From positions 1-54,477 of IMG/VR virus record IMGVR_UViG_3300037313_000433: DNA of 54,477 nt. One strand, given 5' to 3'. Under the pieces are notes generated by a model. It did no database searches and was not told the DNA's origin. It worked only from the letters and a program-made list of their open reading frames with translations. Of this stretch, positions 31,919 to 54,477 are shown in pieces. The DNA is from a virus. How positions within the stretch are numbered: the stretch's first letter is position 1; each line of letters begins with the position of its first letter. The position numbers and the translations under genes were made by a program.

Positions 31919-31936
31919 GGCGTCACCCGCTGGTGA

Positions 31937-31969
31937 AATGAAAAGCCCGACACCTTGCGAGTGCCGGGC
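31937..31969 (-). terminator. rho-independent terminator downstream of the tRNA pair
   Basis: Minus strand reads GCCCGGCAC TCGCAAG GTGTCGGGC followed by TTTTCATTT. Confidence 0.7.
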
Positions 31970-31979
31970 TGTGGATAGG

Positions 31980-32071
31980 CGCGAGGCGGGGAGTCGAACC
32001 CCAACTGGCTGGCCAAGCCAAAACCCTCCAGTGCATTTAAACTGGCGCTCTCCCACGTGAGCTACACTCGC
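31980..32071 (-). tRNA. aberrant tRNA-like gene: canonical D- and T-arms, apparent 8-nt anticodon loop (UUAAAUGC), ~24-nt extra arm, imperfect acceptor stem; isotype not assignable
   Basis: GCGAGTG TA GCTC ACGTGGGA GAGC G CCAGT TTAAATGC ACTGG AGGGTTTTGGCTTGGCCAGCCAGT TGGGG TTCGACT CCCCG CCTCGC. Confidence 0.5.
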
Positions 32072-32075
32072 ATGT

Positions 32076-32151
32076 TGGAGCCGGAAGCCGGATTCGAACC
32101 GACGACATCTTGCTTACAAGGAAAGCGCTCTTCCAACTGAGCTATTCCGGC
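32076..32151 (-). tRNA. tRNA-Thr (anticodon UGU), CCA encoded
   Basis: GCCGGAA TA GCTC AGTTGGAA GAGC G CTTTC CTTGTAA GCAAG ATGTC GTCGG TTCGAAT CCGGC TTCCGGC T CCA; perfect acceptor, one U-C mismatch in the anticodon stem. Confidence 0.85.
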
Positions 32152-32186
32152 GTATCTGCTTTGCCCATGAGGGCGAAACTGTTTTC

Positions 32187-32831
32187 CTATGCCGCAGCCT
32201 TGCGGCGCTTCTCTTCTCGCTGCCGGCGGCGTTTGTTCTGCGTCTCGGCCCAATCAAAATTGCCAAGGTCTGTATCGAAATCACAGCCGAATGTCAGATT
32301 TTCAGGAGAGGCCCAAGATGTGCGCGGCTCTTCGATGTTGACGCAAATATCGCCGATTTCGGCCGCAGTTGGCAACAGGCTCTCGAAGGTTGAAACGTGA
32401 GTAGAATTGCCGTTTACGCTAATATTTTTCTTCAAAATCGAAAAGATTGCACGATCCTTGCGTCTACGGCCTGTTTCTTCGTGAATTCTTTCGTCCTTCC
32501 TGCACCAGACAGAGAACGGCACCCCGCCCGCTTTGGCGATTGCCCAATTGAGCAGGCATCGCCGCTGGCTATCGTTCTCGACCAAACCGACGAGGGTATT
32601 AGCCCGTTCCCATAGGGTGACTTGATCTGGCCTGATTTTCTGCTGGTCGGGATCGAGCCATGCCCATTCCCGCGCCTTCTTGTCTTCGGAATCCCACCCG
32701 TTGATGTCGGCCCAATCGTGAACATAGGGGAGCGACATGGATTTTGCCTTGCTTGGCCCTGCCGAAATGGGCAGGCGCCGATCAATCTCGGCAGCTTGAA
32801 TGAAGAGTTCTTGCACTTCCTCGGCTGTCAT
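32187..32831 (-). CDS. hypothetical protein (214 aa; basic C-terminus; possible late-gene regulator by position)
   Basis: Last protein gene before the tRNAs and packaging genes; ATGA-coupled upstream. Confidence 0.5.
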   Translation of the reverse strand: MTAEEVQELFIQAAEIDRRLPISAGPSKAKSMSLPYVHDWADINGWDSEDKKAREWAWLDPDQQKIRPDQVTLWERANTLVGLVENDSQRRCLLNWAIAKAGGVPFSVWCRKDERIHEETGRRRKDRAIFSILKKNISVNGNSTHVSTFESLLPTAAEIGDICVNIEEPRTSWASPENLTFGCDFDTDLGNFDWAETQNKRRRQREEKRRKAAA

Positions 32832-53789: not shown

Positions 53790-54477
53790 GCTTGGAAATC
53801 AGTGACGCGATGGTCGAGGCTGCACTTGAGGCCTACGGCGTACCCAGCGACATCACATCGGCCGGCACAGGACGTGCCGCGAGAGCGATGCGCAAAGCCA
53901 TTTCAGCCGCCCTCGCCGCCCGTGAAGCGGAGGCAGGAGCGGTGTCACATCCGACCGATCGAGGGAGTCACAAGAGGTCGTTCCTGGCGGGATGGATGCG
54001 CTACGACACCTCAGCCGATTGCGACATTGAGCGCGCTAATTCCGAATTCGATGCTTGGTGGCCAGAAGGCGACCTTGCTGCCAGTGAAACGGAGGCAGGA
54101 GCGGTGAACATTGCTGGCGTCGACAACCAGGTTATTGTGGCCGCCGCCGAAATGGACAGTACCCAGAAGCTTCAGCCATTTTGGCTTTGGTATGACCGAG
54201 ACGAAAAGCCTAGTTTTGGTCGCTGGCAGAAGCACAAATATCAAGCTCCATACATCCGCGCTGATCTGGTTCTCGCCTCCCCCGCTCCGCATGTAGCGGA
54301 AGGGTGGGATGGCAAGCCGATGCCGCGCGGTGGCGTTGAGACTGATTGGCAGGCCGCGTCAATTCTTCAATACCGGAAATATTGCAAGCTCGCCAAAGCC
54401 GCAGCGAAGGTGGTCGAGGAGGCTGATCGCATCCACGACAATGAGCCGTGGCCTGTGAAATATAGAGCGCCATGGGA
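53786..54477 (+). CDS. hypothetical protein, 5' part; runs off the window end and continues at 3..212
   Basis: ATG at 53786 (ATGA overlap with the upstream stop); no stop before the window end, so it is absent from the ORF track. Confidence 0.6.
   Translation, partial: MSLEISDAMVEAALEAYGVPSDITSAGTGRAARAMRKAISAALAAREAEAGAVSHPTDRGSHKRSFLAGWMRYDTSADCDIERANSEFDAWWPEGDLAASETEAGAVNIAGVDNQVIVAAAEMDSTQKLQPFWLWYDRDEKPSFGRWQKHKYQAPYIRADLVLASPAPHVAEGWDGKPMPRGGVETDWQAASILQYRKYCKLAKAAAKVVEEADRIHDNEPWPVKYRAPW
54354..54477. repeat. Terminal direct repeat copy (identical to 1-124)
   Basis: Direct comparison. Confidence 0.9.

Follow-up and report, generated by a model that had tools for sequence, protein, structure and literature searches.

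The window analysed here is the 54,477-nucleotide (nt) stretch formed by positions 1 to 54,477 of IMG/VR virus record IMGVR_UViG_3300037313_000433, and our subject is an aberrant tRNA-like gene that lies on its minus strand beside a normal tRNA gene. Read 5′ to 3′, the minus strand of region 31934-32177 carries a short leader hairpin, a canonical tRNA-Thr(UGU), a gap of 3 nt, the tRNA-like gene of 95 nt, a 7-nt spacer and an intrinsic terminator (Table 1). A first, sequence-only reading of this DNA had proposed a tRNA-Thr with encoded CCA, an odd tRNA-like gene and a clean terminator in one transcription unit, and had taken the odd gene for a possible quadruplet-reading frameshift suppressor. 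The tRNA-Thr and its CCA are confirmed by ARAGORN and by the Rfam tRNA model. The terminator holds as well: its stem-loop (31970-31944), followed by a U-tract, has 11 pairs, a folding energy of -19.5 kcal/mol and a shuffle z-score of -4.95. The tRNA-like gene proved to be a cloverleaf with intact helices and four lesions, for which decoding of quadruplets is not supported.

Table 1. Features of the tRNA-Thr/tRNA-like cassette and its 5′ border in the window.
Feature	Position	Strand	Basis or remark
tRNA-Thr(UGU), canonical, CCA encoded	32076-32151	-	ARAGORN; Rfam RF00005, 62.5 bits; locus model R1, 81.3 bits
Aberrant tRNA-like gene, 95 nt	31978-32072	-	ARAGORN 'tRNA-???', 4-base anticodon aaat; cloverleaf is the minimum free energy fold
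tRNA-like core	32071-31980	-	3′ end G73-CC, then U at 31977
Anticodon arm of the tRNA-like: 5-bp stem CCAGU/ACUGG, 8-nt loop UUAAAUGC	32028-32045	-	sequence; pair probabilities ~0.68
Anticodon stem strands; loop UUAAAUGC	32045-32041 / 32032-32028; 32040-32033	-	
Variable region of the tRNA-like, 25 nt, own 5-7 bp helix	32003-32027	-	minimum free energy fold; pair probabilities 0.41-0.52
Intrinsic terminator: 11-bp stem, 5-nt loop, tail UUUCAUUU	31934-31970	-	folding; shuffle z-score
Leader hairpin TTCGCCC-TCAT-GGGCAA, 9 nt 5′ of tRNA-Thr	32161-32177	-	same motif in related loci
DUF6362-like protein gene, 214 aa, 5′ border of the RNA-cargo site	32187-32831	-	phrog_37864; 66 homologs

The minimum free energy (MFE) structure of the tRNA-like is a cloverleaf of -34.2 kcal/mol, and in it all of the anatomy described by the sequence-only reading is recovered. 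The D-arm is of class-I type, with a GCUC/GAGC stem and an 8-nt loop (ACGUGGGA), and the T-arm pairs GGGG with CCCC around the loop UUCGACU. The nucleotides that build the tRNA elbow (U8, A14, G18, G19, A21, G53, U54, U55, C56, A58 and C61) are complete, both in the sequence and in the Rfam alignment; the 15-48 pair, C15/U48, is atypical. The first lesion is the anticodon loop, which has 8 nt instead of 7 and which ARAGORN likewise reports with a 4-base anticodon. This loop survived a check set beforehand, as refolding of the anticodon arm gave no 7-nt loop within 1.8 kcal/mol and none among the ten best suboptimal folds. The second lesion, the extra arm on a class-I body, lies in the variable region, which resembles a class-I AGG..UU loop with a hairpin of ~20 nt inserted; its helix has two possible registers, with pair probabilities of ~0.4-0.5. 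The inserted sequence occurs only once in the window, on which ground a repeat or mobile origin of the hairpin was rejected. Third, the acceptor stem is flawed at positions 6-7, as had been noted: after 5 bp, U6 is bulged and 1-2 further pairs follow, the 3′ strand being one nucleotide short. The fourth lesion was overlooked by the sequence-only reading: the gene ends in G73-C-C-U, which one base change would turn into an encoded CCA.

These departures are mirrored in the scores. With the Rfam tRNA model (RF00005) the tRNA-like reaches 25.9 bits (E = 0.0027, local search), below the curated gathering threshold of 29 bits, and it is not listed in a scan at that threshold; the alignment contains an extra loop base, a 21-nt insertion and a deleted position in the 3′ acceptor strand. 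A tRNA model derived from the locus gives 25.3 bits (E = 4e-5 over 328 kb). For calibration, class-I tRNAs at the homologous site in relatives score 48-62 bits, and two long-arm tRNA-Ser(GCU) score 54.8 and 56.1 bits; the tRNA-like lies ~30 bits under the genuine tRNAs of the locus, and the long arm alone is therefore not the cause of the low score. The folding stability of the tRNA-like is unexceptional against shuffles for its G+C content (z = +0.36). The tRNA signal is thus one of tRNA-specific architecture and conserved nucleotides, not of thermodynamic stability. That the resemblance is more than chance is confirmed by the E-values of the tRNA models, by the position of the gene 3 nt from a bona fide tRNA, and by the presence of tRNAs at the same site in relatives.

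Several known classes were considered for the tRNA-like and set aside. As a canonical tRNA it fails by its sub-threshold score, its 8-nt loop, its interrupted acceptor stem and the missing CCA, the elbow nucleotides alone being in order. It does have the long, structured variable arm of class II (Ser/Leu/Tyr), 25 nt with a helix of 5-7 bp; however, its D-arm (4 bp, 8-nt loop) contrasts with the 3-bp stem and enlarged loop of class II, as found in the tRNA-Ser of related loci L125 and L136, and its anticodon is not one for Ser, Leu or Tyr. Reading UUAAAUGC as an ochre-suppressor (UUA) or Leu (UAA) anticodon loop would in both cases require breaking the 5-bp anticodon stem. With the irregular and allo-tRNAs of Mukai et al. 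(PMC5389517), the tRNA-like has in common a long variable arm, G73, a bulge and an acceptor-branch geometry other than 7/5. Allo-tRNAs, on the other hand, have an 8/4 or 9/3 branch of 12 bp and a long D stem with a tetraloop (PMC5389517), whereas the best fold here is a 7-bp acceptor with a bulge over a 4-bp T stem (11 bp in all), with an ordinary class-I D-arm of 4 bp and an 8-nt loop. A Y RNA-like molecule (YrlA, RF02553) was rejected at 16 bits against a gathering score of 69, the match being limited to the generic T-arm/D-arm part and spanning the junction of the two tRNAs, and tmRNA and the other Rfam families gave sub-threshold noise only.

The origin of the gene was approached in the same way. 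It did not arise by duplication of the tRNA-Thr next to it or of another tRNA of the locus, as identity is at most 62%. Derivation from tRNA-Ala was rejected: the D-arm and the string UGCAC are alike, but G3:U70 is missing. For tRNA-Ser, the likeness of the T-arm and of the 3′ end with G73 is offset by a D-arm that belongs to the other class. A simple chimera of two tRNAs is improbable, since both the acceptor stem and the anticodon stem pair. In general terms, neither aberrant tRNA-like genes in phages nor irregular tRNAs are a new category, and aberrant tRNA calls are common in phage genomes.

Homologs of the tRNA-like were sought widely and none was found in the collections scanned. In IMG/VR, the exact anticodon arm and the variable/T arm had no match, and the anticodon stem with any 8-nt loop had one chance match, located within a coding region. 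A pattern combining the D-loop with the terminator found only normal tRNA-Ala genes or chance matches in GTDB representative genomes, and blastn against INPHARED and PLSDB returned nothing past generic tRNA matches of 23-25 nt. A homolog was present in none of 80 IMG/VR loci related by TerL; a metagenome scan with the flanking 214-amino-acid protein yielded one short contig, which ends before the site, and exact-protein look-ups of the downstream open reading frames (ORFs) and of TerL gave no further contigs. The comparison with related phages that had been suggested for compensatory changes in the stems thus had no homolog to work on, and no argument for function can be drawn from covariation or conservation, because homologs are absent from the collections scanned. 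Among all loci sampled, the combination of tRNA-Thr and tRNA-like is unique. The sole identical contig (L082, the same phage, from Logan SRR35147159) breaks ~30 nt into the tRNA-Thr (L082:2822-2851), which suggests that in that sample the tRNA-Thr sequence is shared with another replicon, e.g., that of the host. We also observed that an unrelated IMG/VR contig, met through a chance pattern match, carries a CUA (amber-suppressor) tRNA that ARAGORN calls tRNA-Pyl (L081:7673-7747).

The 8-nt anticodon loop was the reason for proposing a quadruplet-reading suppressor. Within the loop, U-U-[AAAU]-G-C, U33 is followed by a 4-base anticodon and then by a purine, an arrangement also found in +1 suppressors. 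The AAAU anticodon would read AUUU, and we scanned the complete genome for ATTT at places where a long open frame precedes, closes soon after, and continues in the +1 frame. Seven geometric candidates were obtained, and none of them in the complete genome has coding-type GC3 (G+C content at third codon positions of at least 0.7; real genes here have 0.71-0.78) in frame 0 before the site as well as in frame +1 after it. Nor is AUUU avoided: the 68 predicted genes (~15,100 codons) contain 28 in-frame ATT-T sites, and 17% of ATT codons are followed by T, compared with 15% of all codons beginning with T. This counts against an efficient AUUU reader, because the own genes of the phage would be expected to avoid the quadruplet. 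Furthermore, A34 is nearly unused in bacterial tRNAs.

The comparison with known enlarged loops points the same way. Quadruplet tRNAs of the sufD/sufB2 type and engineered ones resemble the tRNA-like in the extra anticodon-loop nucleotide, U33 and the purine after the 4-base anticodon (PMC9094753; bioRxiv 10.1101/2020.12.31.424971); they are otherwise canonical and chargeable, with one inserted base, whereas the tRNA-like carries three more lesions in its body, a sub-threshold score, an anticodon beginning with A34 and no target site in the genome. The yeast mitochondrial tRNA-Thr(UAG) has an enlarged 8-nt anticodon loop as well and yet reads triplet CUN codons (PMC7609411), so that an 8-nt loop is by itself no proof of quadruplet reading; unlike the tRNA-like, that tRNA is conserved and charged (PMC7609411). 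Quadruplet decoding by the tRNA-like is therefore not supported. The anatomy given by the sequence-only reading stands and the alternatives that it listed (decayed pseudo-tRNA, decoy, processing element) are sensible, while its headline of quadruplet reading finds no backing, given the score, the further lesions, the absence of a +1 site, the unavoided AUU-U and the lack of homologs.

A broader form of this idea is that the tRNA-like works as an irregular tRNA. Trimmed at the 3′ end, repaired to CCA and charged, most plausibly by seryl-tRNA synthetase (SerRS) by way of G73 and the long extra arm, it would read AUUU, or a triplet via AAU/AAA, and act as a low-level frameshift or missense suppressor. 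We consider this quite improbable. The 8-nt loop, in which U33 precedes the 4-base anticodon and a purine (G) follows it, the intact helices, the tertiary nucleotides (U8, A14, G18, G19, A21, U54-U55-C56, A58) and the combination of G73 and a long variable arm would all suit such a molecule; the bulged acceptor stem, the score under the Rfam threshold, the rarity of A34 and a combination of class-I D-arm and class-II-length arm that is absent from known classes would not. Translationally active irregular tRNAs do exist, also in alpha-proteobacterial phages; irregular tRNAs occur as well in polycistrons with others of their kind, and some of them are probably unused in translation (PMC5389517). 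Other irregular tRNAs are found at the homologous site as well, namely the tRNA(CAU) of loci L117-L119; against this, the tRNA-like is without CCA, unlike every true tRNA at the locus, and the genome-wide survey of AUUU and the search for homologs speak against it as they do against the quadruplet reader.

The site occupied by the cassette could be followed through related phages. In 15 of 34 IMG/VR loci, the DUF6362-like gene is directly followed by canonical tRNA genes, 17 in all. The majority are tRNA(CAU), several with an initiator-like make-up, and the rest are Thr(UGU), Ser(GCU), Gly, Asn and Gln. CCA is encoded in all 19 canonical tRNAs (these 17, that of L117 and the tRNA-Thr of the window) and is missing from all three aberrant tRNA-likes, that is, the one in the window, L083:5452-5524 and L116:3130-3203. 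The tRNA-like of L083 has a 6-nt loop, which ARAGORN reports as a '2-base anticodon', and scores 34.8 bits in Rfam; it is followed by a terminator homologous to that of the window, with the common motif CAGCCCG...CGGGCTTTTCATTT. In L116 (34.9 bits) the anticodon arm and the T stem are broken, and of a second relic in the same locus only an initiator-type 3′ half is left. The tRNA-likes of the window and L083 are not orthologs, because homology between the two loci begins only at the spacer TATC..CAGCCCG before the terminator.

RNAs of other kinds are found at the site too. An abiF motif (RF03085, 52.5 bits) lies downstream of the DUF6362-like gene at L083:4723-4759 (IMGVR_UViG_2818991448_000002), with no AbiF-sized ORF beside it. 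A DUF3800-VII motif (RF02967, 50.4 bits) is present at L112:939-1029, with similar sequence at L116:2416-2530 and L110:2160-2213. In the two relatives with the most similar flanking protein (82% and 67% identity), a DUF3800-VII-type RNA stands in place of the tRNA cassette, in the one at 82% as sequence similar to the motif, and these short contigs contain no adjacent DUF3800 gene; the function of DUF3800-VII RNA is not known (PMC5737381). Judged by this changing content, the site is a rapidly turning-over hot spot of small-RNA cargo in temperate phages of Rhizobiales.

Some of the cargo deserves description in its own right. An initiator-like tRNA(CAU) is kept in six loci (L124:3132-3208, L132, L133:3206-3282, L136:1679-1755, L151 and L003:2010-2086), with 1:72 (G x A) and 2:71 (U x C) unpaired and a compensatory change at 6:67 between L124 and L003; it is evidently an irregular phage tRNA that has nevertheless been selected. 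The tRNA(CAU) at L117:3141-3214, also present in L118 and L119, has C1 x A72, a 6-bp D stem with a tetraloop, a 4-bp T stem and an encoded CCA, an architecture like that of Sec/allo-tRNAs, and its best Rfam match is tRNA-Sec (34.6 bits). In L116, a small ORF resembling an HNH endonuclease (...CVDCGEDDPIVLEFDHRD...NCHRRRT; 2570-2910) is inserted in the leader, with the DUF3800-VII-like RNA on one side and the tRNA relics on the other. Turnover of cargo at the site could be driven by a homing endonuclease.

RNase Z naturally acts on precursors that lack CCA. The tRNA-likes of the window and of L083, not orthologous and both lacking CCA, each have a terminator of the same type 8-13 nt downstream, and this arrangement would fit a role as tRNA punctuation: the CCA-less shape before the terminator would direct cleavage by RNase P and RNase Z, and on terminator read-through the late mRNA would be severed from its leader and start with a protective hairpin. 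We regard this as highly doubtful. There are only these two cases, and most relatives have CCA-bearing tRNAs or none at this place, which makes such a function dispensable.

The defence-linked RNAs of the relatives bear on another explanation, in which the tRNA-like is a mimic that titrates or misdirects a host effector targeting tRNAs, such as a nuclease or a toxin that modifies the acceptor end, while the tRNA-Thr replaces a depleted host tRNA. The shape recognised would be the elbow, the acceptor end or the long variable arm, and the helices and elbow of the tRNA-like are indeed intact although its anticodon loop is non-functional. RNA of the abiF motif counteracts the AbiF toxin as its antitoxin (PMC12373285), and the orphan copy in phage L083 could, by analogy with pseudo-ToxI, be an anti-defence decoy; the same leader site bears defence-linked RNAs in relatives (the abiF motif of L083, the DUF3800-VII motif of L112). 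Phage tRNAs are established as a means of counter-defence (PMC10264068, PMC11555353), and initiator tRNA is a known target of VapC (PMC10264068). Many of the related phages carry initiator-like tRNA(CAU) genes. On the other hand, nothing is conserved among the aberrant tRNA-likes, each being a singleton with different defects; the loop UUAAAUGC is unlike any natural anticodon loop and could not pass for the substrate of an anticodon nuclease; a matching defence system is neither known nor recognisable in this case; and no precedent was found in the literature consulted for a non-decoding tRNA decoy in phages. A decoy is in our view unlikely. To take the gene more generally as a selected non-canonical RNA, either a shape-mimic decoy at an anti-defence cargo site or a Ser-type tRNA with an expanded loop that recodes AUU(U), seems rather unlikely too.

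We lean instead towards a non-decoding pseudo-tRNA or mimic, a remnant or a spacer, that is co-transcribed with the tRNA-Thr in the leader of the late (packaging) operon. A single transcript would start upstream of the conserved hairpin, span both the tRNA-Thr and the tRNA-like, and end at the terminator. RNase P would recognise the intact acceptor, T-arm and elbow of the tRNA-like and cut at its 5′ end; this cut would leave the tRNA-Thr with a 3-nt trailer after its encoded CCA, parted from the terminator hairpin. The released tRNA-like would be neither productively aminoacylated nor used on the ribosome, and any residual role would be that of a processing spacer rather than of an adaptor. 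In its multiple indels, its loss of CCA, its lack of conservation and its place beside functional tRNAs at a site of fast turnover, the gene resembles the tRNA pseudogenes and relics known from phage tRNA clusters and cargo hot spots.

A number of observations weigh against this interpretation. The gene has multiple lesions and is an orphan, but its stems are unusually intact for a neutral relic: all five helices are preserved, with no mismatch in ~42 stem nucleotides despite the four lesions, and this speaks against long neutral decay, which would be expected to strike the stems too. The insert in the variable loop forms a tidy hairpin of its own. Trimming followed by the CCA-adding enzyme could turn the CC-U end into CCA, and G73 together with a long extra arm makes up the identity set of SerRS. 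Finally, the presence of two non-orthologous tRNA-likes before the same type of terminator hints that a CCA-less shape may be selected there.

The genome that carries the cassette is that of a temperate phage. It is complete and circularly assembled, with a length of ~54,353 bp, since the window ends in a perfect direct repeat of 124 nt (1-124 and 54354-54477). Besides an integrase (565-1716), it has ERF and NinB genes and encodes a DnaB helicase, a C5-methyltransferase, TerL, a portal and a major capsid protein. The order on the minus strand is: replication genes, the DUF6362-like gene, the hairpin/tRNA-Thr/tRNA-like/terminator segment, small membrane-protein ORFs, a TerS-like gene, TerL and the portal. 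Next to the integrase, at 1725-1765 on the minus strand, we observed the 5′ half of a tRNA gene (GGCCGGAGTGTAGCGCAGCCTGGTAGCGCACTTGACTGGGGG; a weak R1 match of 13.6 bits), which is probably the attP core and as such would indicate integration into a host tRNA gene. The host is probably a member of Rhizobiales, since the homologs of the DUF6362-like protein, several of them with PF19889, come from prophages of Rhizobium, Agrobacterium and Nitratireductor, besides metagenomes.

The DUF6362-like gene always directly precedes the hairpin, behind which come the RNA cargo, the terminator and the late genes. The Arg-rich C-terminal tail of the family is nearly invariant (N199, R201-R203, R205; QNKRRRQREEKRRK), and a search of solved structures with the protein found no significant relative. 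The hairpin TTCGCCC-N4-GGGCAA occurs on the same strand downstream of this gene in 12 loci of related phages; 13 exact matches were counted, L082 being this same phage and L083 and L091 one contig. Besides the window, the hairpin is carried by L083, L112, L113, L114, L125, L128, L130, L136, L152, L153 and L154. Its stem is invariant and its tetraloop variable, it is sometimes present in two copies, it lies upstream of the tRNAs and the terminator, and in several loci the conservation reaches ...cggaatgcgaggcggcgctgaaa(c)gcagaagcgc. In these respects it resembles, by analogy, a nut/boxB-type site, and the DUF6362-like protein may be an N/Q-like antiterminator.

In the Stx phage 933W, the tRNA genes ileZ-argN-argO lie between Q/pR' and stx and decode rare codons as canonical tRNAs. 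Lambdoid Stx phages and the present phage are alike in that tRNA genes follow a regulator gene and precede the terminator or the late genes, so that they are transcribed in the late leader; they differ in that the regulator here is an uncharacterised DUF6362-like protein, for which antitermination is only a conjecture.

Taken alone, as a probable non-decoding relic or mimic, the tRNA-like is a modest curiosity; a natural quadruplet decoder would matter for the biology of the genetic code, and the evidence obtained here is against it. The more useful lead is the site of small-RNA exchange between the DUF6362-like gene and the terminator that precedes the packaging genes in temperate phages of Rhizobiales, with a cargo that ranges from canonical, initiator-like and irregular tRNAs and decayed tRNA-likes to an orphan abiF RNA and a DUF3800-associated RNA. 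If this cargo serves counter-defence, the site would be a good place for mining RNA-based anti-defence factors, and it would also be suited to asking whether non-decoding tRNA mimics have roles.

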